Shown: in pieces, positions 7,923-53,382 of the stretch
How positions within the stretch are numbered: position 1 is the first letter of the stretch
Layout: every line of letters begins with the position of its first letter
DNA from: an uncultured Methanosarcinales archaeon
GTDB taxonomy: Archaea; Nanobdellota; Nanobdellia; Woesearchaeales; CAXGTL01
Assembly: GCA_964535955.1 (NCBI GenBank)
Contig: CAZHVK010000009.1
Span: 1-64,000, forward strand
Direction of reading: 5' to 3'
Length of the DNA: 64,000 nt
Notes under the pieces: generated by a model
What the model saw: the letters and a program-made list of their open reading frames with translations, nothing else
Database searches by the model: none
Told to the model about the DNA's origin: nothing
Made by a program: the position numbers and the translations under genes

Positions 7923-8098
7923 GGCTTCATCCAAAATATCCGTCTGTGATGTCAGAAACCATAGGTTTCTGAGCATGCTCAGAAATGCTTTGCATTTCTG
8001 ACACATCGATGCCTGAGATGCCATAGGCATTGATGGCATGGCCAGATGAAGCTTTTGAGCATAGCGAAAAAGCGGAATAGGATTTTTTGGATGGAGCA
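7923..8098 (+). mobile_element. MITE-like family A copy 1, carrying a double-hairpin module
   Basis: Ends GGCTTCATCCAAAA / TTTTGGATGGAGCA; flanks CCTTTTCCC / CCTTTTTCC; homologous to 24043 and 34325 copies. Confidence 0.75.
7950..8003. repeat. 54-bp TGTCA...TGACA double-hairpin module
   Basis: TCAGAAACC-ATA-GGTTTCTGA, GCATGC, TCAGAAATGC-TTT-GCATTTCTGA. Confidence 0.9.
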
Positions 8099-8180
8099 CC
8101 TTTTTCCAAAACATTTATATATAAAGATTCTATTATTATAGCTATGATGATATGCACTGATTGAAATAGGGGAACTATTA

Positions 8181-10598
8181 ATGTCAAAAAAAAAGAGGTC
8201 AAAAGAATTTATTCTATGGTTTGATGAATTAGGTATAGAAGATGTCCCATTAGTAGGAGGAAAAAATGCTTCTTTAGGTGAAATGTACAGATTACTGACT
8301 AAGAAAAAAGTAAGAATACCTAATGGTTTTGCAGTCACAGCTTATGCTTATCATTATTTACTAGAAAAAGCAAAAGTAAAAGACCATATTAAAAAAGCAT
8401 TAAAAGGCCTTAACACACACAATATCAGAGACTTGGCAAAAAGAGGACAAAAAGTAAGAAACATAATTCTAAATGCACATTTTCCAGAAGAACTTAAACA
8501 TGAGATAATAAAAGCTTATAAAAAATTATGCAAAAAAGAAGGAACAAAAGATGTTGCAGTTAGATCAAGTGCAACAGCAGAAGACTTACCAGATGCAAGC
8601 TTTGCAGGCCAGCAAGAAACATATCTGAATATTGTAGGAGAAGCAGCATTGATTGATGCATGTAAAAGATGTTTTGCATCTTTATTCACAAATAGAGCGA
8701 TTTCTTATAGAGAAGATAAAGGTTTTGACCATTTTCAGATAGGATTATCAATCGGTGTGCAGAAGATGGTAAGGTCTGATAGAGCATCAGCAGGTGTCAT
8801 GTTTTCAATTGACACTGAAACAGGTTTTAAAGATGCTGTTTTTATCACAAGTGCATATGGATTAGGTGAAAATGTTGTACAAGGAAATGTTAATCCAGAT
8901 GAATTCTATGTTTTCAAACCAACACTAAAAAAAAACTATAAACCAATCATTTCAAAAAGATTAGGTGAAAAAAAAATAAAAATGATCTATGATCTTCAAG
9001 GAAACAAACCAACAAAAAACATAAATGTTCCTTTAGAAGACAGAAGAAAATTTGCATTAACAGATAAAGAGGTTCTTATTTTAGCAAAATGGGCATGCAT
9101 TATCGAAGATCATTATTCAACAAAAGCAGGCCATTTTAAACCAATGGACATGGAATGGGCAAAAGATGGTAAAAACAATAAACTATACATTGTCCAGGCA
9201 AGGCCAGAGACAGTACAGAGTCAAAAAGATTGGAATGTGTTAGAAAATTACAATTTACCTAAAAAATCACAAGTACTTGTAACAGGTAGAAGTGTTGGTG
9301 AAAAAATAGGTAAAGGCAAAGTAAATGTTATAAAAGATGTAAAAGATATTTACAGATTTAAAAAAGGCCAAGTATTGGTAACAGACATGACTGATCCTGA
9401 TTGGGAACCAATTATGAAGATTGCAGGGGCAATTGTTACTAATCGTGGTGGAAGGACTTGTCACTCCGCAATTGTAAGTAGAGAATTAGGTTTGCCTTGC
9501 ATAGTAGGAACTGTAGATGCAACACAAAAACTAAAAAAAGGTAAAAAAGTCACTGTGAGTTGTGCAGAGGGTGAGATTGGTTATGTTTATGAAGGACTTT
9601 TACCAATAAAGATCAGAAGAACAAATATTAAGAAACTTAAAAAACCAAAAACAAAGATAATGATGAACCTGGCTAACCCAGAACAAGCATTTAATTATTC
9701 ATTTATACCTAATGAAGGCATTGGCTTGGCAAGAGAAGAATTCATAATCAATTCATACATCAAGATACATCCTTTGGCATTACTAAATTATCATAAGATA
9801 AAAGACCATGAAATAAAAGAAAAAATAGACAAACTAACACATGGTTACAAAGACAAAGTACAATTCTATATTGACAAATTAGCAGAAGGCATTAGTATGT
9901 TAGGTGCTGCATTTTATCCAAAAGATGTTATTGTCAGGTTTTCTGATTTCAAGTCTAATGAATATGCAAATCTAGTAGGTGGAAAAGATTACGAACCTGT
10001 TGAAGATAATCCTATGATTGGATTCAGAGGAGCATCTAGGTATTATAGTGAGATGTTTAAACCAGCTTTTGTACTGGAATGCAAAGCTATTCGAATAGTA
10101 AGGGAAAAGATGGGCTTGACAAATGTCAAAGTTATGATACCATTCTGCAGGACAATTGAAGAAGGCAAAAAAGTAATAAAGATAATGAAGAGGCATGGTT
10201 TGAAAAGAGGAAAAGCAGGATTACAAGTCTATGTCATGTGTGAAATACCTAGTAATGTAATGTTAGCAGAAGAGTTTGCAAAGATCTTTGATGGTTTTTC
10301 AATTGGTAGTAATGATTTGACACAGTTGGCTCTGGGTTTAGATAGAGATTCAGAACTTGTAAGCCATATTTATGATGAAAGAAATGAAGCTGTAAAGTCT
10401 TTGATAAAATCAGTTATCAAAACAGCAAAAAAGAAAAAAAGAAAGATTGGCATCTGCGGCCAAGCACCATCAGATTATCCTGAATTTGCACAGTTTTTAG
10501 TAGAATGTGGTATTGATTCTATTTCTCTTAACCCAGATACTGTGATAAAGACAACTTTGGCAATTTTGAAGACAGAAAAAAGATTAAGGAAAAGATAA
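8181..10598 (+). CDS. ppsA: Phosphoenolpyruvate synthase
   Basis: VGGKNASLGEM, AVRSSATAEDLPDASFAGQQET, GGRTCHSAI (phospho-His), FSIGSNDLTQ. Confidence 0.97.
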   Translation: MSKKKRSKEFILWFDELGIEDVPLVGGKNASLGEMYRLLTKKKVRIPNGFAVTAYAYHYLLEKAKVKDHIKKALKGLNTHNIRDLAKRGQKVRNIILNAHFPEELKHEIIKAYKKLCKKEGTKDVAVRSSATAEDLPDASFAGQQETYLNIVGEAALIDACKRCFASLFTNRAISYREDKGFDHFQIGLSIGVQKMVRSDRASAGVMFSIDTETGFKDAVFITSAYGLGENVVQGNVNPDEFYVFKPTLKKNYKPIISKRLGEKKIKMIYDLQGNKPTKNINVPLEDRRKFALTDKEVLILAKWACIIEDHYSTKAGHFKPMDMEWAKDGKNNKLYIVQARPETVQSQKDWNVLENYNLPKKSQVLVTGRSVGEKIGKGKVNVIKDVKDIYRFKKGQVLVTDMTDPDWEPIMKIAGAIVTNRGGRTCHSAIVSRELGLPCIVGTVDATQKLKKGKKVTVSCAEGEIGYVYEGLLPIKIRRTNIKKLKKPKTKIMMNLANPEQAFNYSFIPNEGIGLAREEFIINSYIKIHPLALLNYHKIKDHEIKEKIDKLTHGYKDKVQFYIDKLAEGISMLGAAFYPKDVIVRFSDFKSNEYANLVGGKDYEPVEDNPMIGFRGASRYYSEMFKPAFVLECKAIRIVREKMGLTNVKVMIPFCRTIEEGKKVIKIMKRHGLKRGKAGLQVYVMCEIPSNVMLAEEFAKIFDGFSIGSNDLTQLALGLDRDSELVSHIYDERNEAVKSLIKSVIKTAKKKKRKIGICGQAPSDYPEFAQFLVECGIDSISLNPDTVIKTTLAILKTEKRLRKR

Positions 10599-10605
10599 AA
10601 AAAAG

Positions 10606-10983
10606 CTAAACAGAAACTATTTCTTCTAATTCATCATCTTCTTGCCCATATCCTGGCTTGCCAATCAAACCAACAACTTCTTTATTCAAATCAATATATC
10701 TTTTTATACTTCTTTTATATTCTCTGTTTGCATTTAGATAATCAACAATATCTTGCTCAGTATACTCAGCCCCATTGTCAAATATCATAATCTTATAACC
10801 ACTGTCAAACATATCATGCATTTCTCTAAGAAATCTATTAAATTCCTCTTCTGGTTTGTGATTTATATATTTAGAAGATACAAACACACTTATTTTTTTT
10901 TCACGATCAACAACACCTATGAGTTTAGATTCTTTATTAGTAGAAATCATTATAGGTTCTATTTTATATTCTAGTTCAGTCAT
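10606..10983 (-). CDS. Hypothetical protein
   Basis: ATGA-coupled ORF. Confidence 0.6.
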   Translation of the reverse strand: MTELEYKIEPIMISTNKESKLIGVVDREKKISVFVSSKYINHKPEEEFNRFLREMHDMFDSGYKIMIFDNGAEYTEQDIVDYLNANREYKRSIKRYIDLNKEVVGLIGKPGYGQEDDELEEIVSV

Positions 10984-11474
10984 TTTCTCTGTGTTTTTAA
11001 TACATCTGTGGTCTCAAAAAAAAGAGCATAAACTTCGCATATTGTTGGTCTCATGATATCTTCATCAGGATGATTTTCATATCTTTCTTTATAATCTTTG
11101 ATAGCTTCTTCATAAGTTTCAAACACTACATAAACCAGGTCAAAACTTCTTTCAAGATATCTAATATCATTTTTGTTTTTTTCAAACCCTTCTTTGATTA
11201 GTTCAAGACTTCTCATCTCAATAAAATAATTATGTCTTACATAATCTTCATCCATTCTATCAAGAAATTGTAAAAATATAGAATCATAAAGTTCACACAA
11301 TCCCCTGAATGCCATTTCCATTTTTCTATCAAGTGGCAGTGTATTAAGATAATGTTTTACTTGTTCTTTTTTATCTTTAATCTCTTGTTCTAGATGCTTA
11401 TTAAATCCACAAAAACCAAATTTCACAGACTTTTTTCTATACTTTTCTAAATCTACAACATTATCTTCAGACAT
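10980..11474 (-). CDS. Hypothetical protein
   Basis: Likely start MSEDNVV just after upstream stop. Confidence 0.6.
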   Translation of the reverse strand: MSEDNVVDLEKYRKKSVKFGFCGFNKHLEQEIKDKKEQVKHYLNTLPLDRKMEMAFRGLCELYDSIFLQFLDRMDEDYVRHNYFIEMRSLELIKEGFEKNKNDIRYLERSFDLVYVVFETYEEAIKDYKERYENHPDEDIMRPTICEVYALFFETTDVLKTQRK

Positions 11475-11475
11475 C

Positions 11476-11916
11476 TTACACATACTCAAATTGCGGTTTA
11501 ATCCCAGTAAAACAACAGAATGTTTCATAAAATGAATGTTTTTGATAATACATTTTATTGAGTTTAAACATTGTCATTATTTTATCAACCAAATTTTCAG
11601 CTCTTTGAAGAAAACTTGTATTTTGTGCTCTTGTTTCTAATTCTTTATTAACCATGTACAGATCATGCAGATCAAAAACAGTTTCTTCTTTTTTCATATC
11701 TTTAAAACTTTGATTTAATTCATATCCATACATTTCTTGCAATGCAAATACATATTCTTTATGACTATCAATTAATTCTTCTTCTTTCAAATGCTTTAAA
11801 TAATCATCAATTGATTTTCTTAACCTTATCCTTTCTACATCAACATTTTTAAGATATTCAGAAACATTGAATCTTCTATTTTTGTGTTGTTTTATTTTAT
11901 ACATATTATTATCCAT
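11476..11916 (-). CDS. Hypothetical protein
   Basis: GGAGG SD, first gene of a three-gene run. Confidence 0.6.
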   Translation of the reverse strand: MDNNMYKIKQHKNRRFNVSEYLKNVDVERIRLRKSIDDYLKHLKEEELIDSHKEYVFALQEMYGYELNQSFKDMKKEETVFDLHDLYMVNKELETRAQNTSFLQRAENLVDKIMTMFKLNKMYYQKHSFYETFCCFTGIKPQFEYV

Positions 11917-12017
11917 CTAAATCCCTCCATAAATTTCACGTATTGTTTGGAAAATCTTCATATATTTATAAAGCTTTCCAAAAAGTATATAAAGTATATG
12001 CATTTTCCTAGCTAACT

Positions 12018-12773: not shown

Positions 12774-12937
12774 TTCTATACACAATAAATTCCCAGATTT
12801 CTACCACTTTCGAGTAATTAAACACAGAAACATTTATAAATTGCGAAATTTTGAGCTTAGCCCGTAAGAAGGCAGAATTTTATGTTTTTATTTTATCTAA
12901 AAATATTCTTTCATGAAATGTGAAAGTTTTCGTTTTA

Positions 12938-13840: not shown

Positions 13841-13842
13841 TT

Positions 13843-18897: not shown

Positions 18898-19686
18898 TTA
18901 ATCATTTCTAAAATATTTAAATGGATCTCCTGGTTTTCTATCCTTTTTTTCATGGTGCAGCCAAATGGCTACAAGAACATCATAACATTGTAGACAAAGA
19001 TAACTTGTTTTTATAGATGGGTTTCCTGCACACTTTGACACTTCTTTAGGATATAAACTTGGATTTCTTATATCTTTATGATGGTCATTACATCCTAACA
19101 TATGCACTGCTTCATGTTTTGCTAATTTTTTTATATATTCAGGATTATAAGGATAACTAAGAACAATAGTGCTAAGGGAAAAATCACACCAGCCATCATC
19201 TCTTGTTCCATTTCGTTTTTGTGGTAAATATTTATTTGTAATGACAACATCAGCATGAGGAATTCCTCCTCTCTCAGGATCCTTATATCTTTCTTTTTCT
19301 GTCTGTTCTGCAATTTTTCTAGGGTCCACTGTCTTTTCATCTTTCAATGAATTTTTAATATACTCTTGAGTATTGCTCTCAACACCCCAGAATTCATATT
19401 TAAAATCTAAACCCAGCTCATCTATTAGTTCTTTTATACCAGCACATGCAGAATCCATATAATCTTTTCTTTGGTGTTCAGGAATACTAGAATCAACAAA
19501 AAACCTTATTAATTGTCCTTTAACATTTTTATTAAGCCAACAAGAATTACCTTCACTTGTTTTTAATATATACTTAAGGTTATGTCCTGTTATTTCTAGT
19601 TTTAATCTAATATCTGATCTATTAATAGAATCTAATTTTTCAATACCTACTTGATGTTTTATCCACTTTTTTAGATTTGCATCCAC
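18898..19686 (-). CDS. Zinc metalloprotease, archaemetzincin-like; paralog of 56556..57287
   Basis: HEAVHMLGCNDHH, later Cys and CxxC, PHADVV. Confidence 0.75.
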   Translation of the reverse strand: MDANLKKWIKHQVGIEKLDSINRSDIRLKLEITGHNLKYILKTSEGNSCWLNKNVKGQLIRFFVDSSIPEHQRKDYMDSACAGIKELIDELGLDFKYEFWGVESNTQEYIKNSLKDEKTVDPRKIAEQTEKERYKDPERGGIPHADVVITNKYLPQKRNGTRDDGWCDFSLSTIVLSYPYNPEYIKKLAKHEAVHMLGCNDHHKDIRNPSLYPKEVSKCAGNPSIKTSYLCLQCYDVLVAIWLHHEKKDRKPGDPFKYFRND

Positions 19687-19692
19687 TAGAAC

Positions 19693-20588
19693 TCACTCCC
19701 TAACCCACAAACCTTTTTCTTCTAAAAATTCAAAACAGAAATTCCTTGCTTCTTTAAGNNNNNNNNNNNNNNNNNNNNNNNNNNNNNNNNNNNNNNNNNN
19801 NNNNNNNNNNNNNNNNNNNNNNNNNNNNNNNNNNNNNNNNNNNNNNNNNNNNNNNNNNCCCACAAACCTTTTTCTTCTAAAAATTCAAAACAGAAATTCC
19901 TTGCTTCTTTAAGTTCATACAATGTATGAGCATCACTGTTGATATAAATCTGATCAGCATGATTAAGAACTTTCATCAAATTCTTCATATTAGTTCTTTT
20001 TGTGTATAAGTTAGAACCATTAAACTCGATTGGAACATTATAATGATTAGCAAGATCAATTATAGGCATTACATCAATTGTTTTTTCAAAATAAACAGAT
20101 GCTAAGTGTCCTAAGAATTTTATTTTATTATGAAATCTTTTGATTGCATTTAGATATGCTTCAGTTATCCTTGCACAATCACCTTCATAAACTTTATTAT
20201 ATCTATGCGCTGACAAAACAATAAAATCATTATCCTTGCCTTGGATCTTAGTACAAATATCTCCTTTTTCATTCAAAATATCAGCTTCAACACCAAATAT
20301 AACATTTACATTATTATCAAAAACATTTCTCCATCTTCCTGTTTCACAGATTAATTCACCAGTTACTCTATCTCTAAATGGAGCAACTATTCCTCTTGAT
20401 GTTTTTTTTTGATAACCAAACTTTTCCAGATAATGTTGAGAATGATCTGTAATAGCAATCTCTTCCAAACCTATTTGTCCAGCATATTCTACAATCCTAT
20501 TGATCAATTCTGCACCATCTGAATAAGTAAATGAGTGCATGTGATAATCTTTTTTTCCAGGGTTTACTATTTTATCTGATATGTCCAT
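19693..20588 (-). CDS. PHP-domain hydrolase; 3' end interrupted by an assembly gap
   Basis: DYHMHS..SDG, IAITDHS, NSDAH; collapsing the duplicated gap flanks gives the end GLWVRE*. Confidence 0.85.
19759..19858. other. Scaffold gap whose flanks overlap
   Basis: About 55 bp left of the Ns is repeated right of the Ns. Confidence 0.9.
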
Positions 20589-20688
20589 ATATCTTGGTAG
20601 GATAAAAGGCTTTATAAATCTTTGCATATTATACTATTGGAGAGTAACAACAAAACACAAGAAAACAATGATTATTATGGTTTAGAAT

Positions 20689-24040: not shown

Positions 24041-24042
24041 TG

Positions 24043-24164
24043 GGCTCCATCCAAAATATCTGTCTGTGCCATCGATGTCATCAATGGCTTGTCATTGATG
24101 GCATGGCCAGATGGAGTTTTGTGAGCAAAGTGAGCAAAACGGAATAGGATTTTTGGATGGAGTT
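24043..24164 (+). mobile_element. MITE-like family A copy 2, without the module
   Basis: Ends GGCTCCATCCAAAA / TTTTGGATGGAGTT; aligns to copy 1 except for the 54-bp module. Confidence 0.75.
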
Positions 24165-25904: not shown

Positions 25905-26369
25905 TCAACCACAATTCATTAAAATTAGCTCAGGATTTGCCATAAACCCTTCTCTCTTTATCTCGTCTATGATATAATAGGTTTTCTTGTCTTCAATTGT
26001 AAACTTTTCTTCAAGCTTTTCAATAAAATCCTCAGCATCTTTGACATGTTTAAACACACCTTCTATTAAAAAGTCAAAGCCATTATTCACTTTATACACA
26101 GAATTCACTAATTGATGTTTTTCAAGAAACATCTTCGCCGAGTCCCTGTCAGTCTTATTCACTTTTACCATGATATTTGCTTTTGTATGAAACCCTAACT
26201 GTTTAAAATCAATCAATGTAGTATGTTTTTGTATCAATCCTTTTTGAAAAGCTCTTAACTTATCATATAATGTTGATACAGGTACATGGATCTTTTTGCT
26301 TAACATTGTTAACCTCATTCTTCCATTATTTCTTAAATGTGCAATCATTTTTAGATCTTTTTCTTTCAT
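25905..26369 (-). CDS. Lrp/AsnC transcriptional regulator
   Basis: LRNNGR.RLT.LSK HTH, IDFKQLGF. Confidence 0.88.
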   Translation of the reverse strand: MKEKDLKMIAHLRNNGRMRLTMLSKKIHVPVSTLYDKLRAFQKGLIQKHTTLIDFKQLGFHTKANIMVKVNKTDRDSAKMFLEKHQLVNSVYKVNNGFDFLIEGVFKHVKDAEDFIEKLEEKFTIEDKKTYYIIDEIKREGFMANPELILMNCG

Positions 26370-26569: not shown

Positions 26570-26623
26570 TGTCAGAATCATACAATGATTCTGATCATGC
26601 TCAGAAACCTTTGGTTTCTGACA
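26570..26623. repeat. 54-bp double-hairpin module outside families A and B
   Basis: TCAGAATCAT-ACA-ATGATTCTGA, TCATGC, TCAGAAACC-TTT-GGTTTCTGA. Confidence 0.9.
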
Positions 26624-26821: not shown

Positions 26822-27907
26822 ATGTCAGATAAATTTAAGGGTCATATGCTTGAAAGAGTAGACAAAGATATAGTAAAACTAGATCTCACATATAGGAAAA
26901 TACTGTTTTTATTAGGTACAAATCCTAGATTTTCAATAGAAAAAATAAGCAAAATTACAAGATTGTCTAGAGATGTTGTTGCATATAGAATTAATAAGCT
27001 AAAAGAACTAAAGATCCTTACAGGAGCAATAACTTTATTGAATCCATGGGCATTAGGAGTAGCAATAAATTATACAATATATCTTCAGATGCAGAACATA
27101 GAAAAAGAAAAAGAACAAGAATTAATTGATTTTTTTGTTGCACACAAGCATATAAGATGGGTCTCTACATGTGGTGGTAAATATGATATGGGTTTGGTTG
27201 TCAATACAAGAAATATTGAACAATTTAACAAGATCTTTATGAAGATTATTGAAAAATGTGGTGATTATCTTAAAGATTATATTATCTGTGTACCATTTGG
27301 TGAACATTATTGTTATCCTTATTTCTTGATAGAAGATTTCAAACATAAGGACAAGATCGACCTTACAGACAAGTATCCTGGAAAACCAGATTCTTCATTT
27401 CAAAAAGAGATAATAGCAGCACACAAAACACCACAAAGATATGAACCAATAAAATTAGATAAAAAAGATACAGAGATCCTAAAACTGTTAGAGACCAATG
27501 CAGACATGAAAGTCTCTGAAATATCTAAAAAGATTAACCTCTCATCGAGTTCTGTAATGCAAAGGATAAGGCGTTTGATCAAGGAACGGGTTATCTTAAG
27601 GTTTTACCCTATGATATCATATTCATTGATTGGTCTTCAATGGAACATGTTATTTCTTAACCTAAGAAACTATGATGAAAAAAGATTAAGACAGTTGGAA
27701 AATTATCTAATAAAACACCCGCACATAGTCTGGTTTGTCAAATCAATTGGTAAATGGAACTATGAAGTAAGTGTATTTGCAAAAGATGCATCACATTATC
27801 ACAAGATTGTAGTTGATATTCGTAATCATTTCAAAGATATTGTACGGAATTATGAGACAGTAACAATCTTTACACAGTATAAGTATGTATTCTTTAGTGA
27901 GATTTAG
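26822..27907 (+). CDS. Tandem (double) Lrp/AsnC regulator
   Basis: Two HTH+RAM units (GGKYD and IGKWNY). Confidence 0.88.
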   Translation: MSDKFKGHMLERVDKDIVKLDLTYRKILFLLGTNPRFSIEKISKITRLSRDVVAYRINKLKELKILTGAITLLNPWALGVAINYTIYLQMQNIEKEKEQELIDFFVAHKHIRWVSTCGGKYDMGLVVNTRNIEQFNKIFMKIIEKCGDYLKDYIICVPFGEHYCYPYFLIEDFKHKDKIDLTDKYPGKPDSSFQKEIIAAHKTPQRYEPIKLDKKDTEILKLLETNADMKVSEISKKINLSSSSVMQRIRRLIKERVILRFYPMISYSLIGLQWNMLFLNLRNYDEKRLRQLENYLIKHPHIVWFVKSIGKWNYEVSVFAKDASHYHKIVVDIRNHFKDIVRNYETVTIFTQYKYVFFSEI

Positions 27908-29899
27908 TTAGGTGACTCTGATTTCTATTCCTTTGACTAATTTATCTAAGTAGACACTGTCGCAGCAATTGAATTTGTTAATTTTTTGTATACCACATAA
28001 TCTTTCAAGAGATAAATGTACTAATGTCTCTCTATGATCCTTATGAAGATAATAGTATGCTAATTCAAGATAATGCATCCTCTGTTCGCCTACTTTTTCC
28101 CCTTTCATGTAATCACTAATTTGTTCAATAATTGGTCTGTGTTGTTCTTGATGGCAGTGTCCTGTTTTTTCATATTCCATAAAACATTGAAATATTTCTT
28201 CATGTAATTGATTTGGACCACACCAAGCTTCTGCATAATACTTGCTATCAAAATCTTTAAGAGATGTGATTACACCATCTCTAGAATCCAGGAGAGTTAA
28301 TGAATATCTTGGTGGCTTTTTTTCAAACTTTTTTTTACTTATACTTTTAACACACTCACCATCAACATACTTATTAATACTTTCATTAAAAGCTAACCAC
28401 CTTACAAATTCTTTTGCTCTTCTATTATTTACATTTAAATTAAAGATTATTCTTTTGATGCCTGCTTTTCTAGCTGCTTCATAAATTCCTTTATAAAACG
28501 CATGTTTCCATTGGTCCTGATTTTTGATAAGACTAACCGCGACACCTGTCTCTACACCCTCAATCATCCAAACAGTTTTATCTTCTTCGTTCTTTGCATC
28601 ATTATCTTTACATTTCAAGATATAAGCAACACCTATGTTTTCTTGAAACGCATCATCTAAGTAGGATTGAAGATAAAGTTTTCCAATATTAGGACAAATT
28701 TCACCTAATAAAGCTGCTTCTTTGTATAGACCATTTGGACCTTCAGTACATGATCCTGTTGTAACCTCATTAATCAAAAAATTTTCCAGAGGATTAGAAC
28801 TTTGATATACAACCCTTACCTTATTAAATTCTCTTGTCTCATCATAAATACCTTTTAATTCTAGAAAAAAATGATAAAATTCATCTATGTTTTGCTTTTC
28901 TCTTTTACGATCACAAAAACCAAAAACTTCTCTGAAGAAAAAATCAGGGGAGAGTTCTTCTTGATCCTTGAGTTTATTTTGAATTTCTCGTATTTGATTC
29001 AATATTGATTGATTAATCTTTATTTTTGTTCCATCCATATTTATCTCAGGTATTTTTTCTTTTGTATGACTGTTTGTAGAGGCATTTGAAATCGCTTTGA
29101 GAAAATTTTTAATTTCATGTTTAACATATTGATCCCTGGATTTTCTATCTTTAAATTCATAAAATAATTCTTTTAATTGTATTCCTTCTTCATAAATTAT
29201 GGGTTCTGTAGAAGAAAAAGGGTTCATGAAACTTTCTTTTTGATCAATGATTATTTGTATTAAATTATCTTTGTTCTGTACATTCATTTGTTTTATTAGT
29301 ATGTGTATATTTTTTAATATCCTTCCTTCAAGATCCCACTCAAGAGATAGAAGTTTTATCTTTCTGCCATCAATATTTACTACACTAGAAACATATTGAT
29401 TATCCTCTATAAGATTATAAAAGTGTTCTGAATTAAATGTATGTGAAAGCAAAGTTGTTTGTGCTTTGTTATGAAAATTCTCAGAAAGTTTCCCCATAAT
29501 TTTTGTAAGGATCTCTTGATTATGGCTAAAACGAGTTGCTATTTTGCCAAATTCTTCACCATTATAGAAATTTATCAATTCCTCTTTGGCATCTGCTTCC
29601 CAATATGATAATATGTATGCCATGCCACAAGCTACTTCTTCTTTTTTTTCAAATTTTTTGATGAGTTTTATGAATTGTTCATCTAATAATGATTCGAGTT
29701 TTTTTTTGGCAAGTTCTAATGAATATCTTCTAAAAAGATCATCATGGTGTATGTTTGTAAGGATTGCTTTTTTGATTTTTAGTGAATCATAATCAATTGC
29801 AGAGTCAAGATCAAAATCCAGTCCATTATGATCTAGTGCCTTCTGTATTTCAGTCTTTAATGTGTTTACTTCTTCCTCCAGACTCATCTCATCACTCAC
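27908..29899 (-). CDS. Helical-repeat protein with conserved Cys-containing C-terminal domain; paralog of 29896..32382
   Basis: SSNPLEN.LIN.V.T.SCTEGP.GLYKEAA.L.EICPN, VWMIEGVETG, YAEAW, FNCCDS.YL. Confidence 0.8.
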   Translation of the reverse strand: MSDEMSLEEEVNTLKTEIQKALDHNGLDFDLDSAIDYDSLKIKKAILTNIHHDDLFRRYSLELAKKKLESLLDEQFIKLIKKFEKKEEVACGMAYILSYWEADAKEELINFYNGEEFGKIATRFSHNQEILTKIMGKLSENFHNKAQTTLLSHTFNSEHFYNLIEDNQYVSSVVNIDGRKIKLLSLEWDLEGRILKNIHILIKQMNVQNKDNLIQIIIDQKESFMNPFSSTEPIIYEEGIQLKELFYEFKDRKSRDQYVKHEIKNFLKAISNASTNSHTKEKIPEINMDGTKIKINQSILNQIREIQNKLKDQEELSPDFFFREVFGFCDRKREKQNIDEFYHFFLELKGIYDETREFNKVRVVYQSSNPLENFLINEVTTGSCTEGPNGLYKEAALLGEICPNIGKLYLQSYLDDAFQENIGVAYILKCKDNDAKNEEDKTVWMIEGVETGVAVSLIKNQDQWKHAFYKGIYEAARKAGIKRIIFNLNVNNRRAKEFVRWLAFNESINKYVDGECVKSISKKKFEKKPPRYSLTLLDSRDGVITSLKDFDSKYYAEAWCGPNQLHEEIFQCFMEYEKTGHCHQEQHRPIIEQISDYMKGEKVGEQRMHYLELAYYYLHKDHRETLVHLSLERLCGIQKINKFNCCDSVYLDKLVKGIEIRVT

Positions 29900-32382
29900 T
29901 CAACCCTCACCTCTATACCTTTAACCTTTCTGCCTAAGTATTCAGAGTCGCAGCAGTTGAAAGCATCATCATCCACACCTCTTTTAAACCAAGCCTCTGC
30001 ATATTGTTTTCCACCAAATTTAGCTAATGATTTTATTTCTCCGTTTTCAGAATCCAAAGAACCATCTTCATTACAAAGTGTTAATGAATATCCTGGAAGA
30101 TATTCTTTTTCCTCTAATCTGTTAGGACTTATGTAATCTGTGGGTTGACCTTTTTTATATTTAGTTATCTCTTTGTTTGTACATAACCACCACACAAATT
30201 CTTTTGCTCTTCTACTCTTAACATTAAGATTAAATATTATTCTTTTAATACCTACATCTTCAGCAGCTTGATATATTCCTTTGTAAAAATATTCTTTCCA
30301 TAGATCTTCTTTTATCAACCCAACAGCAACACCTGTTTCAACACCATCAATCATCCACACTTTTTCATCTTTTGTCTTTTTTACACCATTCTCCCAGCAC
30401 TTAAGTATATAAGCAACACCTATATTTTCAGGGTAATCTTCATTATGCATATTGTATTTGGAGTAAGATTGTAGATATATTTTTCCAACATTAGGACAAA
30501 TCTCACTAAGTACTGCAGCTTCTTTATATAATCCTCCTGGTCCCTCAGTGCAAGACATAGTTGAAACATGATTAATAAGAAGATTTTCTAAAGGATTTGA
30601 GCTCTGAGAAACCACTTTTATTTTATAAAAGTTTTCACATTCTTTTTCTGCTTTGATACTGATTAAATAATCATATATTTTTTCGATAGATCTTGCCCGT
30701 TTTTTAGATTCACAAAATTTTATAAGGCCGTTTATTATAACATTTTGTTTTTCTGATATGTACTTATCAGTACCTGCATGTTTTTGTGGATCATAAAATT
30801 TGTTATTTAAAAATCCGTATTCCAATCCAAATAATGAACTATATAAATCCATTAACAATTTCTTGTCAATTTTTATTTCCTCTTGATTTTCAATTTTTAA
30901 TCTACATTTTCTTTTATTTTTGTCTATTTCTTTGGCAATTTCTCCTTTTAACCTATTCATCTTATTCTCAATAACTTGTATTAATGATGGTTCCTCACTC
31001 CCCTCTTCAATACATTTGTCATAATAATCATCAAAATGAATACCTTTTGGTTTTACATTTTCTTTAATAAACTCTTTGTCATTTTCTTTAAACGGTGTCT
31101 GTGTTTGGTCGTTTTTTGTAATAAATTCTATTGCTTTTCTCATATATCTAAATTTACTATCTACGAATTTGATAAGTCCATCAATGCTGTATTTAATTTT
31201 TCTTATACCTTCATCGTGCGATCCATCTGGTGCAACTTCATCAAAATAAGCAGGGTGTTCTTTTAATTTTGTCATTAATTCTTTAAAATTGTTTGATGCA
31301 AATACTTCAATAAGACTTCCTTTTTCGACACTAATCTCAGAGACCATTCTTTCAGGAATGTTATTTATAACCAGAGAATATTCATCAAACGACCCATACA
31401 TTTTTTCAAACCTATCTGACAGAAAAAATTCCATGTTTTCCTCTTTTTTTGATAGATAAAATAACACAATTTCACTTAGATGTTTATATAATTTTTTTCT
31501 TGACTTTAACTTCCTTGTAAAATCTTTAAATTCTTTTGTGTTTATAAACTTTAAGAATAACTCTCTGTTCTCTCTATCGTCTCTGTATTCCTCTGCAGCA
31601 CACAATAAGTAAGTTATTGCGTCTCCTACTTCATCTTCTTTGAAATAATTCATTGATGAATAATATTCTTCTGAAGATAAAAAATCAAGAGGTAAATCTT
31701 GTCTAAAATCCAAACGTGACAACATATCAAACAATCTTTTAGAGCCAGGATTTGTTCTGTTGATCATCTCCTTAAAATCTTTTGATAAAGAAAAATTCAT
31801 AAATTCTCTCTTATACCTGAAAAGGCTCACAAAACCTATTATTGTAAACATTATGTGTTCAGGATATCCCCTGAAATACAATGCGCATTCTTCAAATTCT
31901 TTTGAGCATATCACATCCATTGCTTCATAATTAGTTTTAGATAATGAATTTGTAAATGCTTCTATTGCTTCATTAGGGTTCTTAAGGAGTCTTTTAAATG
32001 TAGTTGTTGTTTCTTTAAACTTTTCACTTAAATACATTTCCAACAACTCTTGTTTCATAATATAACTAATTCCTGATCTAAAATCACTTAATCTAAACAA
32101 TATTGTCTTTAGTATTTTAGTATCTTCTTTTTCAAATCTTTTGATTACTTGATCATATTCTTCAGATAATAAAAAATCCATCTGACTATCAAATATGTGA
32201 AGGTGTTTATGAAAAAACTGTTCATTGATAATTGTGCTTAGGATTATTTCTGTTATCTCCTTTTTCTCTTTATATTTTTCTCTTAATCGATCAAGTTTGG
32301 TAAAATTGTAGTCTGGATCCTTTTCTCTTATTATTCTTTTAATTTCAGTTACCCTTTCCTCCAAACTCACATCATCACTCAC
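29896..32382 (-). CDS. Helical-repeat protein with conserved Cys-containing C-terminal domain
   Basis: Same motifs as paralog; probable GTG start MSDDVSLEE matches MSDEMSLEE of the paralog. Confidence 0.8.
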   Translation of the reverse strand: MSDDVSLEERVTEIKRIIREKDPDYNFTKLDRLREKYKEKKEITEIILSTIINEQFFHKHLHIFDSQMDFLLSEEYDQVIKRFEKEDTKILKTILFRLSDFRSGISYIMKQELLEMYLSEKFKETTTTFKRLLKNPNEAIEAFTNSLSKTNYEAMDVICSKEFEECALYFRGYPEHIMFTIIGFVSLFRYKREFMNFSLSKDFKEMINRTNPGSKRLFDMLSRLDFRQDLPLDFLSSEEYYSSMNYFKEDEVGDAITYLLCAAEEYRDDRENRELFLKFINTKEFKDFTRKLKSRKKLYKHLSEIVLFYLSKKEENMEFFLSDRFEKMYGSFDEYSLVINNIPERMVSEISVEKGSLIEVFASNNFKELMTKLKEHPAYFDEVAPDGSHDEGIRKIKYSIDGLIKFVDSKFRYMRKAIEFITKNDQTQTPFKENDKEFIKENVKPKGIHFDDYYDKCIEEGSEEPSLIQVIENKMNRLKGEIAKEIDKNKRKCRLKIENQEEIKIDKKLLMDLYSSLFGLEYGFLNNKFYDPQKHAGTDKYISEKQNVIINGLIKFCESKKRARSIEKIYDYLISIKAEKECENFYKIKVVSQSSNPLENLLINHVSTMSCTEGPGGLYKEAAVLSEICPNVGKIYLQSYSKYNMHNEDYPENIGVAYILKCWENGVKKTKDEKVWMIDGVETGVAVGLIKEDLWKEYFYKGIYQAAEDVGIKRIIFNLNVKSRRAKEFVWWLCTNKEITKYKKGQPTDYISPNRLEEKEYLPGYSLTLCNEDGSLDSENGEIKSLAKFGGKQYAEAWFKRGVDDDAFNCCDSEYLGRKVKGIEVRVE

Positions 32383-32518
32383 CCCTACCACCCTTCCACA
32401 TCTTGATAATAGCTTCTTCTACAACATGACTCTTGTTTCTAAATGAACTTTTTCTCAGAATTTCACGTATCTTTTCAATAGTTTCTTGATCCAGGGATAC
32501 ACTTACAACATGTTTCAT
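32375..32518 (-). CDS. Ribbon-helix-helix (CopG/MetJ-like) protein (not in ORF track)
   Basis: MKHVVSVSLDQETIEKIREILRKSSFRNKSHVVEEAIIKMWKGGRGE*; beta-strand plus two helices; overlaps next gene. Confidence 0.75.
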   Translation of the reverse strand: MKHVVSVSLDQETIEKIREILRKSSFRNKSHVVEEAIIKMWKGGRGE

Positions 32519-34213: not shown

Positions 34214-34324
34214 GTTACTGTATGGTAAGTACTTTCTCTTTATAAATGTTTTGGTAATAAACTACTCAAAAGTAGCTACATTCAAAGGATATTTACATGA
34301 ATTATATAAGAATATTTCAAAAAA

Positions 34325-34503
34325 ATGTCCATCCAAAAATCCTACTACGTTTCACCTCACTCCGCTCAGTGAAACTTCGTCTGGCCATGCCATCAATTTC
34401 TTCGAAATTAATGACATTGATGTGTCAGAAATGTATATCATTTCTGAGCATGCTCAGAAACCTATGGTTTCTGACATCACAGACGGATATTTTGGATAGG
34501 CTT
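34325..34503 (-). mobile_element. MITE-like family A copy 3 (inverted, eroded ends), carrying the module
   Basis: Reverse complement aligns with copy 1; module at 34423..34476. Confidence 0.75.
34423..34476. repeat. 54-bp double-hairpin module
   Basis: TCAGAAATG-TATAT-CATTTCTGA, GCATGC, TCAGAAACC-TAT-GGTTTCTGA. Confidence 0.9.
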
Positions 34504-42607: not shown

Positions 42608-42691
42608 AGCATTGGTTTGGTTATCATGTTTATATATATTTGTCTACTAGAATATATAATTAAAAAATAACCTTAAATCTATATGATTTAA

Positions 42692-42812
42692 GGCTCTGTA
42701 GAAATCCTTACTCACTAATGTTCGTCGTTGCCATGCCTGTTCGACCTTTCTTAATATTATGAGGTCTCACAACGGCATAAACAGTAGGCAACGGCAGGAT
42801 TTCTACAAAGCC
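42692..42812 (-). mobile_element. MITE family B copy 1, without the module
   Basis: TIR GGCTCTGTAGAAATCC / GGATTTCTACAAAGCC; perfect 8-bp flanking repeat TGATTTAA. Confidence 0.85.
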
Positions 42813-42857
42813 TGATTTAAGATACATTTATATATACCATTCTCTAAAATAAATACA

Positions 42858-48747: not shown

Positions 48748-48854
48748 TATATATGAATTTAATCAGTTCATTCTAAAGTAGTAAACAAACTTTATATATA
48801 ATAAGTCCAAAAACTATTATATAATAAGTATATTAATCTAAAAGAGGTGGTTAC

Positions 48855-49253: not shown

Positions 49254-49340
49254 AAATATTTTTATTTTTTTTAATCTTTTTCTTTTTTTTAATTTATAAT
49301 AGATAGATTTAAAAACAATAATATAATCCAATAGTATATC

Positions 49341-49453
49341 GCCCCAGTAGCTCAGTTGATAACGCACAGCCTTTTAAAAAAAGCCTGGGGAAAACAAGTG
49401 CGGCATGCGCTCACTGCATTCGCTTAGCCACACGATCACCATCACATATTTAT
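49341..49453 (+). other. Duplicated tRNA-Thr 5' end followed by a structured spacer
   Basis: GCCCCAGTAGCTCAGT at 49341 and 49454. Confidence 0.75.
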
Positions 49454-49571
49454 GCCCCAGTAGCTCAGTGGCTAGAGCATCTGCCTTGTATATAATTACA
49501 GAAAGCAGAAGGTCACCGGTTCAAGACCATTCTACAGAAAAAGTAGGTGAGTGAAAGTCCGGTCTGGGGCT
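49454..49571 (+). tRNA. tRNA-Thr(UGU) with two introns (37/38 at 49491-49503; 59/60 at 49526-49557)
   Basis: Acceptor GCCCCAG/CTGGGGC, anticodon stem TCTGC/GCAGA, T stem ACCGG/CCGGT; TTCA/TGAA helix with 3-nt bulges. Confidence 0.9.
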
Positions 49572-49590
49572 TGTTCTTAATAACCTAGAA

Positions 49591-51018
49591 TTATGCAAAC
49601 CTATGTCTTCTAAAATATCTAGCAGGATTATACCTAGAACCATATCCTTGTGTTTTAGCACCAAATAATTGTATCTTATCAAAAAACAAGTCAATGCCTT
49701 TTCCAACCAGTGCACCACCTGCAGCACCAATCAAAGAGAATAAGAATATTGGCCAAACATCAAATGGCTCAACATCAAAACCTTTTTTAAAATTCTTTCT
49801 ATAGATTTTTCTTGAAATTTCCATAATGTCTTTGTAAACTTCTTTCCTATTACCTTTAGCATTAAAAAACTCAATATTAATTAATTGATTGATTCTTTGT
49901 TCAAGTATTGGCACATATTGCTTAGCATAATTAATACCATCAAAAACTTCCATTAACAAAGGATGTATTTTTTGAGTATCTTGTCTTATTTCTTGTACAA
50001 GTCTGTATTCTATAGGACCAGAATGAGATCTAGAACTTACTCTTTCATAATCACCTTTATGCCATCTTTGTTCAATAAGATCTTTTGCATTAGCCCATTT
50101 AGGTGCTAATTGTTTCAGACTAGACAATCTTGCTAATGCAACAGGAATATTATCAGTCATAGTAGCACCATAAAACCACATGTTTGCAATTTTTAATAAT
50201 TCTTGTTCTGTTAATTCACCTTTATTATCTCTATCAGATCTGCTGACGATTGCAGCTTCTGACCCTTCTGTATTAAACTCATTTGCAAGCATTATTTTTT
50301 CCATACGCAGATTACCAAACCTATCTATTGTATCTTCAAGTGCATTATGTGCTGCTTGACCAAAAGAATTATTATATTTATAATTATGATGAGAATAATC
50401 ATATTGCATTTCCATTGTAGTTTCTAATTCTCCTTCCATATTCAGACCTATACTTGGTTGAAGTGATTCAAAATCCTCTCTCCAATATTTCCATGTATTG
50501 TCAAACTTACTATCAACACCTGCAACAGCTATTCTAAACATAAGAAATTCATTAAGATCTTTTTCAACATTTTCAACAATCTGTGGAAAAACCTCAAAAT
50601 AATCAATTAATTTAAGATATTGTTTTTCATAAGTTTTTTCCCTTTTTTCCTTGTCTTGTCTTTCTCTAAGTTCATATGCAAATTTATGTATATTGTCTCC
50701 TGTAACCAATGTTTCATCATACCATGATATCCTTGGCACTGTTCTATAAGAATCATTTGAAGATTCAAAAACCTTCATAGGAAGATCATTTACAGCTGTC
50801 AGATATCTTGTTTGTGATTCAACTTCTTTACCTTGTTCTTTAGCTTGTGTTTCGATTTGAGCAATTTCAGAAAATCCTAATGGAATTATCTTTGATTGGT
50901 TACATTGATATTTCCATTGCCAACCACCCAATACAGTAGAAAGAACCAAAGCTCCTGTTATTACTTCTATTGCTGCGCTTTCTCTTAATATTGTTTTTAC
51001 AGTATCACTAAAAGTCAT
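49591..51018 (-). CDS. Membrane-anchored hypothetical protein
   Basis: TM segments near both termini. Confidence 0.7.
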   Translation of the reverse strand: MTFSDTVKTILRESAAIEVITGALVLSTVLGGWQWKYQCNQSKIIPLGFSEIAQIETQAKEQGKEVESQTRYLTAVNDLPMKVFESSNDSYRTVPRISWYDETLVTGDNIHKFAYELRERQDKEKREKTYEKQYLKLIDYFEVFPQIVENVEKDLNEFLMFRIAVAGVDSKFDNTWKYWREDFESLQPSIGLNMEGELETTMEMQYDYSHHNYKYNNSFGQAAHNALEDTIDRFGNLRMEKIMLANEFNTEGSEAAIVSRSDRDNKGELTEQELLKIANMWFYGATMTDNIPVALARLSSLKQLAPKWANAKDLIEQRWHKGDYERVSSRSHSGPIEYRLVQEIRQDTQKIHPLLMEVFDGINYAKQYVPILEQRINQLINIEFFNAKGNRKEVYKDIMEISRKIYRKNFKKGFDVEPFDVWPIFLFSLIGAAGGALVGKGIDLFFDKIQLFGAKTQGYGSRYNPARYFRRHRFA

Positions 51019-51142
51019 ATTATATATAGGATAAAACTCCACTTTATAAATCTTTCCATGATTAACCACCTCCAAGTGATAACTAAGCCATCACCAAATA
51101 ATAACAAAAACAATATAAATAAACCCTACTCCAACTAATATT

Positions 51143-51961
51143 ATGGACATAAAAATACTTAAAAAAGCACTTGAAGCATCTTGGAATATTGATACTTGTC
51201 ACAAGCCTATGAAAAAAGACTATGCAAAAAACCATCCATCATATGGTCAATGCTATCCTACAACATTAATAGTAAATGACTTTTTCGGCGGCAAGATATT
51301 AAAATATAAATTCCCAGAAACAGAAATAGGTCATTTCTCAAATCTAATAGATGGAAAAGAAGTCGACTTATCAAGAGAACAATTTGATAAAGATGAATCA
51401 TTTCCAAAACCACAAATTATAGACAGAAAAACATTAAAAACATCAAAAGCATACTTAATACTAAGATCTCATGTAAATAAATACCTGACAAAAAATTATC
51501 CAGACAAAGAAATAGAAAAACTATCATATAGACAAGGTATTTTAGCAGTTATTCTTAATTCAAAAAAACAAATATTAATTATCTCTGCACCAGATGAACC
51601 AGATTATTGGCGTTTTCCATCAGGTGGTGTTGACCCAGGTGAAACACATGAACAAACAGTGCACAGAGAACTAAAAGAAGAACTAAACATAGAAGTTGAC
51701 ATAATAAAAAGAATAACAGATGTTACAAACAAGTTTATCTGGCCAAAGATAGTCATAAAAAAACACAATAATAAGTACAAAGGCCAGCAAAAACATATAT
51801 TCATAACAAGAATCAAACCAAACCAAAACATAATTCTGCAAGAAGAAGAGATCGGTGGCTATAAATGGGTAAACAAAGAAGAAGTAGAAAACTATTTCTT
51901 ATACCCAAATCAAAGATCAACAGCAAAAAAAATCTTTGATGATTATAAAGAGTTTTTTTAA
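51143..51961 (+). CDS. YunG-like domain fused to a Nudix hydrolase
   Basis: GQC..T..IVND.FGG, GHF.N, VDLSREQF; Nudix box GGVDPGETHEQTVHRELKEEL. Confidence 0.8.
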   Translation: MDIKILKKALEASWNIDTCHKPMKKDYAKNHPSYGQCYPTTLIVNDFFGGKILKYKFPETEIGHFSNLIDGKEVDLSREQFDKDESFPKPQIIDRKTLKTSKAYLILRSHVNKYLTKNYPDKEIEKLSYRQGILAVILNSKKQILIISAPDEPDYWRFPSGGVDPGETHEQTVHRELKEELNIEVDIIKRITDVTNKFIWPKIVIKKHNNKYKGQQKHIFITRIKPNQNIILQEEEIGGYKWVNKEEVENYFLYPNQRSTAKKIFDDYKEFF

Positions 51962-51965
51962 ATAA

Positions 51966-52691
51966 TCACTTCCTCTTATTCAAATCAGGAAGACTCTGAA
52001 CCACTTTCGGCTTTGGTTTATGATCTGTTCTTGGCCTTGCTGGTCTTCTTGGTCTGTGTGAAGTTCTTGGATGTTTTGATCTTGCTGGTCTTTTTGGTTT
52101 AGTTGTTTTTGTCAGCTTTTTTTGTTTTTCAGTTTTTTTATATGGTTTTTTATAAGGTTTCTTGTATTTTGTTGCTGGTTTTTTGTCAGTTTTTAAAAGA
52201 TATTTATTCAAATCTTTTCCAAGATCACAAAAATCATCAGCTTCATTCTTTAGAATCCTAGAAGCAGTCTTAGAAAAAGCAATAACTTCTGTTCTACAAC
52301 CATGAGACTTAAGATATAATAATAATTCACCAAAATCACCATCACCAGATACAAGAACAACAGTATCAACTTTTTGTGCCATTCGAACAGCATCCATTGC
52401 AATACCAATATCCCAATCACCTTTTTTAGTACCAGTAATAAATGTCTGCAAACCTTTCATCTTTACTTCAATACCAAGTCCTTCAAGAGCATCATGAAAC
52501 TTTGATTCATCTTTCATATCAGCTTTTATCACATAAGCGATTGCCTTGACAAGTTTTCTTCCAGAAACAGCTTTTTTCAATATTTCACCAAAATTAACTT
52601 TTGCATTATACATATTTTTTGCAGAATAATACATGTTTTGAACATCAAACAATACTAATAATCTTTGTTCTTTATGTTTTAATTTACTCAT
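51966..52691 (-). CDS. NYN (LabA/DUF88) PIN-like nuclease with basic tail
   Basis: FDVQNMY, KGDWDIGIAMD, LVSGDGDF, ADDF. Confidence 0.92.
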   Translation of the reverse strand: MSKLKHKEQRLLVLFDVQNMYYSAKNMYNAKVNFGEILKKAVSGRKLVKAIAYVIKADMKDESKFHDALEGLGIEVKMKGLQTFITGTKKGDWDIGIAMDAVRMAQKVDTVVLVSGDGDFGELLLYLKSHGCRTEVIAFSKTASRILKNEADDFCDLGKDLNKYLLKTDKKPATKYKKPYKKPYKKTEKQKKLTKTTKPKRPARSKHPRTSHRPRRPARPRTDHKPKPKVVQSLPDLNKRK

Positions 52692-52711
52692 TTTGTTTGC
52701 ACCTCTTGTTT

Positions 52712-52847
52712 AGAGTATGTATTTAGTTAGTTGGCCTTTGTTTGTCTTTGAGGCTTTCTACCATCGTAAGATGATCAAGGATTGAAAACTTTAACATATA
52801 TAATTATGTTTTCAGGCGAAAAGACTAGCCAACTAAATACATACTTC
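52712..52847 (-). ncRNA. Candidate structured leader of the NYN gene
   Basis: 15-bp perfect outer stem AGTATGTATTTAGTT/AACTAAATACATACT enclosing a multibranch structure. Confidence 0.5.
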
Positions 52848-53138
52848 TTATATAAAATAACTTAATATCTTATGAAAATAATAATTTATTTTGTTATTAT
52901 TTGTTTTAAACACTTTCCCTTTATAAGAGTTTGTAATTCTTTTACCAGGACTTGTGATTATTACACCATCTAGATCAGGTTCTCTGCTTCCATTTGCTAT
53001 ATTATAAACAACACCTGTTTGTTCTTCTTTCTCAATCACATTTTCTAGAATTATTTTTGTCTCTTTTTTTCTTTTTACTTTATCAACTAGTCTTTCACGA
53101 TTTGTACAAAGTGAAACAACTCTATCCTCTTTTGTCAT
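52848..53138 (-). CDS. Hypothetical protein
   Basis: 96-aa ORF with TATA upstream. Confidence 0.45.
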   Translation of the reverse strand: MTKEDRVVSLCTNRERLVDKVKRKKETKIILENVIEKEEQTGVVYNIANGSREPDLDGVIITSPGKRITNSYKGKVFKTNNNKINYYFHKILSYFI

Positions 53139-53201
53139 ATCTTTTATTTATATTCATATTCATATATAAACATTTATATGATTGAATATTCAACATAAAC
53201 C

Positions 53202-53382
53202 AGCTTTGTAGAAAACCTGTCGTTTCCAACCATTTTCTGCCGTTGCGAGGGCTCATCACTATTAAGCCCGAGCAGGCAGGGTGTCAAGAATCAGAGATTC
53301 TTGATCATGCTCAGAAATTTGTGAACCAACAAATTTCTGACACAACGGCGAGGTAAAGCCGAGTAAGGTTTTCTACAGAGTA
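53202..53382 (+). mobile_element. MITE family B copy 2, carrying a double-hairpin module
   Basis: Ends AGCTTTGTAGAAAACC / GGTTTTCTACAGAGTA; 8-bp flanking repeat CATAAACC; aligns with reverse complement of 42692..42812. Confidence 0.85.
53282..53342. repeat. 61-bp double-hairpin module
   Basis: TCAAGAATC-AGA-GATTCTTGA, TCATGC, TCAGAAATTTG-TGAACCAA-CAAATTTCTGA. Confidence 0.85.

Follow-up and report, generated by a model that had tools for sequence, protein, structure and literature searches.

A very small double-hairpin module recurs in intergenic DNA, other repeats and conserved genes of Woesearchaeota-group archaea

The window analysed here, a stretch of 64,000 nucleotides from contig CAZHVK010000009.1 of a metagenome-assembled genome (MAG) labelled as an uncultured Methanosarcinales archaeon, carries four copies of a double-hairpin module, which is likely to be a non-autonomous insertion element, palindromic and very small, of the Woesearchaeota/Pacearchaeota/Nanoarchaeota group within the DPANN archaea. 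The module begins with TG and ends with CA, with two perfect hairpins separated by (G/T)CATGC, and it is found in intergenic DNA, at several positions within other hairpin repeats and in the interior of conserved genes. As the preliminary description of this DNA had proposed, this tiny non-autonomous unit can be found or missing at sites that are otherwise the same, and no target duplication accompanies it.

The coordinates, sequences and stems that had been quoted for the four copies were all correct on re-reading (Table 1). The three 54-nt copies each combine a 21-nt with a 23-nt hairpin in varying order, and copy 4 carries a foot variant, TCAAGAA/TTCTTGA, in its first hairpin and a 12-bp stem in its second. 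The pattern TCAGAA-N5-25-TTCTGA occurs seven times in the window against 0.47 expected, a number reached by none of 100 shuffles; all seven occurrences lie inside the four modules, and the eighth hairpin is the foot variant. Folded as single-stranded DNA (ssDNA), each copy forms two hairpins with energies of -15.3 to -16.8 kcal/mol (z -5.1 to -7.4, with 0/200 shuffles equally good). A covariance model built from 21 distinct 54-mers scored the four copies at 62-85 bits, and the window holds exactly these four, because the next match (18.6 bits, 6233-6280) is not a module. The same model found further copies beyond the window, in the loci fetched around modules (given L-numbers below), which comprise the DNA within 10 kb of modules and of which 1.17 Mb was scanned.

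Two unrelated host repeats, families A and B, carry the module at some sites and lack it at others, and their filled and empty junctions were read directly from the sequences. In family A, the empty copy joins GTCTGTGC directly to CATCGATG (24062-24077), and the filled form reads GTCTGTGA, module, CATCGATG. In family B, read on the minus strand at 42686-42822, the empty form joins GGCATGG to CAACGACG, and the filled form reads GGCAGGG, module, CAACGGCG. Both comparisons are as they had been claimed, and neither site shows a duplicated flank. Copy 1 is nested in family A copy A1, and copy 3 occupies the same site in the opposite orientation on the window, on the basis of an inverted repeat (I1) with 126-nt arms that are 87% complementary. 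Copy 2 lies outside both families, in the intergenic space between open reading frames (ORFs) 25905-26369 (-) and 26822-27907 (+).

The two empty window copies of families A and B are 124-137 nt long and fold into branched hairpins with a long terminal closing stem, while the filled copies retain this host fold with two hairpins added. A profile search found both families, with about 80% identity, in a single further assembly, CAXGTL01. Counted over the window and this MAG, family A has three copies filled at one identical site and three empty; family B has three empty copies, and the module sits at three different internal sites, one of them belonging to a window copy and the other two to one copy at L013. 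In these hosts the module is always a clean block with an unduplicated flank, and it is a unit that recurs within otherwise unrelated hairpin repeats. A further host, 'family C', is a composite of about 215 nt in JACQXV01 and its relatives, made of several further hairpins with a canonical module at the centre.

Families A and B are themselves unexplained branched-hairpin repeats. Their internal hairpins show compensatory changes between copies, such as GTTTTG/CAAAAC versus GCTTTT/AAAAGC, and compensatory differences were also seen between the family C copies of JACQXV01 and the CAYOQS01 copy.

Besides intergenic DNA and other repeats, the module is present inside conserved genes. The suggestion that it might enter genes in frame, as Rickettsia palindromic elements (RPEs) do, was borne out in six protein families (Table 1), four of the six copies being held by the JAGVXP01 assembly. 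All six are divisible by three in length (54 or 75 nt) and share a single frame, which is the sole hydrophilic stop-free frame and encodes the peptide MSE..(I/V)SEH(A/T)Q(K/E)..D of 18-25 residues. Judging from this frame and its conservation, the in-gene copies would be translated as an extra peptide. In the 54-nt family A copies of the window, two of the three frames on one strand are open, as had been noted, and read VSEMQSISEHAQKPMVSDI and CQKCKAFLSMLRNLWFLT. Peptides rich in Cys and Phe are encoded by the remaining open frames, which occur only at ORF ends (L007, L027). Further copies lie at the N- or C-terminal ends of ORFs, including those of RpoB', LeuRS, S5, S13, S19e, OapC and others.

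Homologues without the insert were found for GatA, L3 and TrpF. For GatA, the 18 residues are present in 1/30 aligned homologues, picked from 120 listed, and this one belongs to the query's own cluster; proteins 94% and 91% identical to it lack exactly the 18 residues, and the motif occurs in 1/120 of the homologues listed. Among 40 aligned L3 proteins, 34 lack the insert, four carry it, one has a degenerate version and one has an in-frame 11-residue deletion in the middle of the insert. For TrpF, 30/30 aligned homologues lack the 25 residues and the motif is in 0/120. The filled GatA DNA reads GTTGATA-(TGTCA...TGACA)-AATAT, and in the empty GatA and L3 proteins an Asp precedes a residue whose codon begins with A, which, as far as protein can tell, would fit a pre-existing GAYA at the empty site.

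A profile of eight insert peptides, each extended by nine residues on either side, was searched against 1.84 billion representative proteins and matched 60 of them at E<=0.001. These include an asparagine-synthase-like fusion protein, endonuclease V, HisI and an L10/P0 protein with two copies in its tail; most of the 60 are short ORFs, probably lying over intergenic copies. An AlphaFold2 model of GatA with the insert gave a predicted local distance difference test (pLDDT) score below 50 for residues 209-238, and the placement of the peptide could not be read from it.

Degenerate module-derived stretches, such as SELSETKSSEHDQKS, were also observed in the Lys/Glu-rich tails of S19e, L10/P0 and other acidic proteins (L051 10001-10042, L095, L096, L113, and twice in protein P0293). 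Old module copies may have been absorbed into these low-complexity tails.

Across the 21 distinct 54-mers, 98.7% of 399 cells are paired in the two-hairpin structure, and compensatory changes on both sides occur at 10/19 pairs. None of 500 shuffles reached any of these measures, and control alignments slid out of register were 26-50% paired. The conserved part of each hairpin is its foot, TCA(G/A)AA...TT(C/T)TGA, whereas the upper stem and loop are free to vary, and the feet themselves covary (TCAGAA/TTCTGA, TCAAAA/TTTTGA, TCAAGAA/TTCTTGA and others). All copies have the terminal inverted repeats TGTCA(G/A)AA...TT(C/T)TGACA; the hairpins are always spaced by CATG, and the outer TG and CA are half-CATG. 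A cloverleaf or four-way junction, suggested by an 18-nt central palindrome, fails where the feet differ, 7/21 being unpaired at columns 6-49. As well, the CATG core could not be explained as a restriction-site effect, CATG not being avoided in the window (226 observed versus 243.9 expected, ratio 0.93).

G-U pairs make up only 1/399 cells, and loops are found as reverse complements on an unchanged stem. In hairpin 1, AAA occurs three times and TTT four times, GAA twice and TTC once; in hairpin 2, AAA occurs three times and TTT six times, AGA once and TCT once. Even in one assembly and one composite context, the loop is TTT in 11/12 copies and AAA in 1/12. The scarcity of G-T wobble and the reverse-complement loops point to palindromes maintained at the level of DNA rather than RNA. 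Loop inversion between perfect arms is the outcome expected of recombination between the arms or of quasi-palindrome template switching, and both processes would likewise keep the arms of a hairpin perfect.

Arrays of three or more hairpins were seen at L007 536-641, L036 (about 9900-10033) and L054 17480-17569, and some covariance-model matches have very long tops, with up to about 100 nt between the feet. Such arrays and tops suggest serial or nested addition of single hairpin units.

Insertion sites were compared over 84 distinct sites. A direct repeat of the flanks has length 0 in 45 sites, 1 in 23, 2 in 11, 3 in four and 5 in one, and a target-site duplication of fixed length was therefore rejected. 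Insertion 5' of CA, which had been noted for the two host repeats, is not general: the module is followed by T in 49 of the 84 sites and by C in 13. The flanks are biased on both sides, with A at -1 in 47 sites, A at -3 in 42 and G at -4 in 33 on the 5' side, and with T at +1 in those 49, T at +3 in 58 and C at +4 in 39 on the 3' side. Read into either end, GAnA adjoins 27/164 module ends, compared with 0-3/164 at six control offsets; it adjoins both ends in only 1/82 sites, and most module ends lack it. All six in-gene copies have nAnA on their 5' side, and in four of them it is RAnA. This one-sided (G)AnA flank also counts in favour of a hairpin process at the DNA level. The flanks do not act as a closing stem, since positions -1/+1 to -8/+8 pair no more than shuffles do.

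An exact-pattern scan of a species-representative genome collection, whose counts are lower bounds, found the module in at least 115 stretches of at least 65 assemblies, at least 62 of which are archaeal MAGs. Among the matches listed, the assembly labels are Woesearchaeota (28), Pacearchaeota (2), Nanoarchaeota or Nanoarchaeia (8), 'archaeon' (2), third-party MAGs labelled 'uncultured Methanosarcinales' (22) and bacteria (3). The Acinetobacter and Salinibacterium records proved to be partial chance matches, and the 'Alphaproteobacteria' MAG contig carries a true module (L001 5044-5095, 58.6 bits) and is probably mis-binned. The 'Methanosarcinales' labels are doubtful, because the L3 protein of L083, a locus so labelled, has its best named relatives in Woesearchaeota and Nanoarchaeota. 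The genes of the window are archaeal (ribosomal protein S19e, Cbf5, NurA, a Rad50-like protein, TrmB), its G+C content is about 30%, and its IleRS and S19e regions share 65-71% DNA identity with contigs labelled Woesearchaeota. The covariance model gave 207 strand-level matches at E<=0.001, with most sites counted on both strands, and added flank copies that the exact pattern had missed. The G+C content of the module ranges from 0.29 to 0.56 across copies, and copy 1 with its flanks had no blastn match in the phage and plasmid collections.

In agreement with the earlier statement that the window lacks the mobilising enzyme, no transposase-like Pfam domain was detected in the 51 ORFs scanned, four module-flanking ones being rescanned at a looser cut-off. 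Beyond the window, the searches covered the DNA within 10 kb of modules, so that a single-copy gene elsewhere in the genome would escape them. Among the 136 ORFs nearest to modules there was no transposase, Y1/HUH types included; apart from a XerC/D-like integrase, a LAGLIDADG protein and a Cas4-like nuclease, one of each, these are housekeeping genes. No gene family was recurrently found beside modules, the largest cluster holding 8/1231 ORFs from the loci, and a phmmer search with one distant seed, Escherichia coli RayT, matched 0/4712 six-frame ORFs from these loci and the window. Nor was any autonomous element with the ends of the module seen; modules that lie close together enclose ordinary genes or unknown ORFs that are unrelated to one another.

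A XerC/D-like tyrosine recombinase gene is present in five loci (L035 4908-5714, L022, L042, L071 and one more), once at 55 nt from a module and at a median distance of 2.2 kb. The association is too weak for a link and may be due to chance.

According to the mechanism that we propose, a trans-acting protein would recognise the hairpin foot and carry out both the copying and the insertion of the module at the level of DNA, and the module might move as folded ssDNA by means of an HUH/Y1 enzyme or another recombinase. The nearest mechanistic model would be a structure-specific transposase or recombinase acting on single strands, comparable to IS200/IS605 TnpA or to the REP-associated tyrosine transposase (RAYT) of repetitive extragenic palindromic (REP) sequences. 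Insertion would favour the 3' side of (G)AnA, while intrastrand templating or recombination between arms would keep the arms perfectly complementary and invert the loops. The element would be mainly selfish, and its size and frame properties could allow it to survive inside essential genes.

In a more far-reaching and tentative version, which we hold to be possible yet doubtful, the CATG-bounded hairpin is the substrate of an unrecognised structure-specific DNA transposition or recombination system that is lineage-wide in Woesearchaeota, Pacearchaeota and Nanoarchaeota. This system would place hairpin pairs beside (G)AnA with no duplication, invert the loops of single hairpins where they stand and be maintained by vertical descent, resembling REPs paired by inversion (REPINs) and their RAYTs but with an unrelated enzyme, and the 18-residue peptide in essential proteins would be its by-product.

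Several points weigh against the module as an insertion element. The empty orthologues of the in-gene sites are available as protein only, and their exact junctions are deduced accordingly. The flank motif is partial and could in part consist of decayed neighbouring hairpins, as several flanks read TGTCA.... The want of a mobilising gene, a recurrent neighbour family, a RayT match or an autonomous relative in the DNA searched is a further, weak point. In addition, the foot is invariant across very divergent genomes, which is unusual for a selfish miniature inverted-repeat transposable element (MITE) and could mean a host function, and the family A module is at the same site in two species, which fits inheritance of a composite as well as site preference.

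The main rival explanation, which we regard as improbable, treats the double hairpin as a host-functional motif, such as a protein-binding site or a transcript stabiliser or terminator, that is selected and spread by recombination. The foot TGTCA(G/A)AA and the central CATG are indeed nearly invariant over 21 distinct copies from many assemblies, the element is shared by the archaeal assemblies counted above, and all four window copies lie between divergently transcribed ORFs. Over 64 intergenic copies placed on a crude ORF map, however, 32 lie between tandem genes and 16 each between convergent and divergent ones, matching the 2:1:1 ratio of unbiased placement; the all-divergent pattern of the window copies is thus chance, and a promoter or terminator role was rejected on this ground. 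Likewise, the single G-U cell argues against selection on RNA structure, and Rfam gave no match for the modules or families A and B, either at the gathering score or at E<=0.5, where two unrelated matches appeared elsewhere in the window. Copy number is variable, and modules are nested in other repeats at different sites. A host-functional motif is hard to reconcile with coding copies in unrelated essential genes that are missing from orthologues 91-94% identical.

It is also unlikely that the 54-nt block is immobile by itself and is a domain of the composites A, B and C, spread through their recombination, gene conversion or illegitimate repair. Such an origin would agree with the single composite of about 215 nt that holds all canonical copies in JACQXV01 and its relatives, with the location of 3/4 window copies in families A or B, and with the family A site shared by two species; it would not agree with in-gene inserts that are exactly the module (18 or 25 residues) without composite flanks, with the three internal sites in family B, or with 84 distinct flank contexts. 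The last alternative is an RNA-level element that is removed from transcripts and therefore harmless in genes. Archaeal introns are spliced out of RNAs by structure, and a bulge-helix-bulge-type intron or other spliced insert would, like the module, be structured, with precise borders and no target duplication. We consider it very improbable, because 6/6 in-gene copies are multiples of three with one hydrophilic open frame, the peptide is conserved among L3 proteins, one of which has an in-frame internal deletion, and most copies are intergenic. Moreover, the pairing of exon flanks is not above that of shuffles, and no bulge-helix-bulge was seen on inspection by eye.

Read as an insertion element, the module resembles several known systems. 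REPs are hairpin units with a conserved foot and a variable top that occur in twos and in mosaics, without target duplication and with a short conserved flank beside the hairpin. The module shares with REPs, bacterial interspersed mosaic elements (BIMEs) and REPINs this foot/top plan, the pairing and mosaics, the lack of duplication and the short flank motif. REPs are extragenic, whereas the module also lies in six genes, within or between domain matches; the inverted doublet of a REPIN is one long hairpin, whereas the module has two self-complementary hairpins side by side; and no RAYT-like gene was found in the DNA within 10 kb of modules. Palindrome-associated transposable elements (PATEs) are hairpin-ended IS200/IS605 derivatives known in archaea, which insert without duplication 3' of a short motif. 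The module is similar to them in being non-autonomous, in consisting of little beyond two end hairpins and in inserting without duplication, possibly 3' of a short motif. However, no parent insertion sequence (IS) with tnpA/tnpB and the ends of the module was seen in the loci near modules, the module is nearly symmetric while IS200/IS605 ends are not, and (G)AnA adjoins a minority of its ends. Finally, MITEs such as Correia elements and Neisseria miniature insertion sequences (NEMIS) are, like the module, small, present in high copy number and often nested, with terminal inverted repeats TG...CA. MITEs of DDE transposases leave target-site duplications, whereas more than half of the module sites (45/84) have no flank repeat and 23/84 a single matching base. 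The module was assigned to none of REP, DDE-type MITE and PATE, because their defining features fail or no parent IS is known.

According to the available part of one review, RPEs are elements of about 100-150 bp in Rickettsia with about ten sequence families and no known transposase, their in-frame insertion is presented as a peculiarity of Rickettsia, and the in-frame examples given there are all bacterial (PMC10969869). Compared with that partial account, the module is similar in being a short palindromic repeat that is found both in intergenic DNA and in frame in unrelated housekeeping genes, where it would be read as a peptide. It differs in its size of 54 nt, its archaeal host, its two separate perfect hairpins joined by CATG and its conservation over a far wider range of genomes, and it is set apart by size and host domain. 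A Woesearchaeal genome has been reported to hold 105 MITEs per Mb, the elements not being described in the part of that source available (PMC11602168). Full-text literature searches found no description of the present element. By analogy, the module may be likened to PATEs and REP-RAYT systems in mechanism and to RPEs in its effect on proteins.

The genomes of DPANN archaea are minimal and are regarded as poor in mobile DNA. A 54-nt element that is common to dozens of species-level genomes and lies in frame in L3, in both tRNA amidotransferase subunits and in Trm1 may be an archaeal counterpart of RPEs and a source of peptide insertions in core proteins. It could also serve as a marker for lineage relationships and for mis-binned contigs. 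The covariance model and the peptide signature MSE..SEHAQK..D make genome- and proteome-wide censuses easy, and they define a search problem, namely a conserved protein that would recognise hairpins with the TCAGAA foot and move them without target duplication.

Table 1. Module copies and host repeats (window positions, unless an L-number is given)
Feature	Location	Strand	Description	Score
Module copy 1	7950..8003	.	54 nt; TG, 21-nt hairpin, GCATGC, 23-nt hairpin, CA	85.2 bits
Module copy 2	26570..26623	.	54 nt; 23-nt hairpin first on + strand	75.6 bits
Module copy 3	34423..34476	.	54 nt; nested in family A copy A3	80.1 bits
Module copy 4	53282..53342	.	61 nt; nested in family B copy B1	62.5 bits
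Family A copy A1 (filled)	7925..8098	+	branched hairpin element closed by CATCCAAAA.../...TTTTGGATG	
Family A copy A2 (empty)	24041..24164	+	empty site GTCTGTGC/CATCGATG	DNA fold -28.9 kcal/mol, z -6.4
Family A copy A3 (filled)	34320..34500	-		
Family B copy B1 (filled)	53203..53386	+	filled between GGCAGGG and CAACGGCG	
Family B copy B2 (empty)	42686..42822	-	empty site GGCATGG/CAACGACG on this strand	DNA fold -29.2 kcal/mol, z -7.3
GatA (Amidase)	L077 10001-10054		module in frame within Pfam match	
Ribosomal protein L3	L083 301-354		module in frame within Ribosomal_L3 match	
TrpF (PRAI)	L114 301-375		75-nt variant, in frame within PRAI match	
DUF371	L054 7555-7608		module in frame within DUF371 match	
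GatB	L102 301-354		module in frame between two GatB domains	
Trm1	L054 859-912		module in frame between two TRM stretches	
Family A/B copies listed outside the window	L005 10622-10770; L005 13081-13202; L013 6396-6532; L026 4437-4558			
Family C copies	L008, L010, L019, L040, L050, L059, L062, L078, L082, L105 (and L009)			

The window also possesses several features that are separate from the module. A run of N (a scaffold gap) at 54887-54986 lies in a Lys/Glu-rich repeat with a 15-nt period, in ORFs after the S19e gene. No tRNA was found in the window by ARAGORN; a sub-threshold tRNA match at 49459-49533 (+), with 26.4 bits against a gathering score of 29, may represent a DPANN tRNA that is atypical or contains an intron. 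A perfect 55-nt direct repeat (19704-19758 and 19859-19913, 155 nt apart) is located at the junction of ORFs 18898-19686 (-) and 19722-20627 (-). Finally, the adjacent ORFs 27908-29899 and 29896-32391 (-), of 663 and 831 aa, match no Pfam family and are tandem paralogues, since stretches of them share 73-74% DNA identity.

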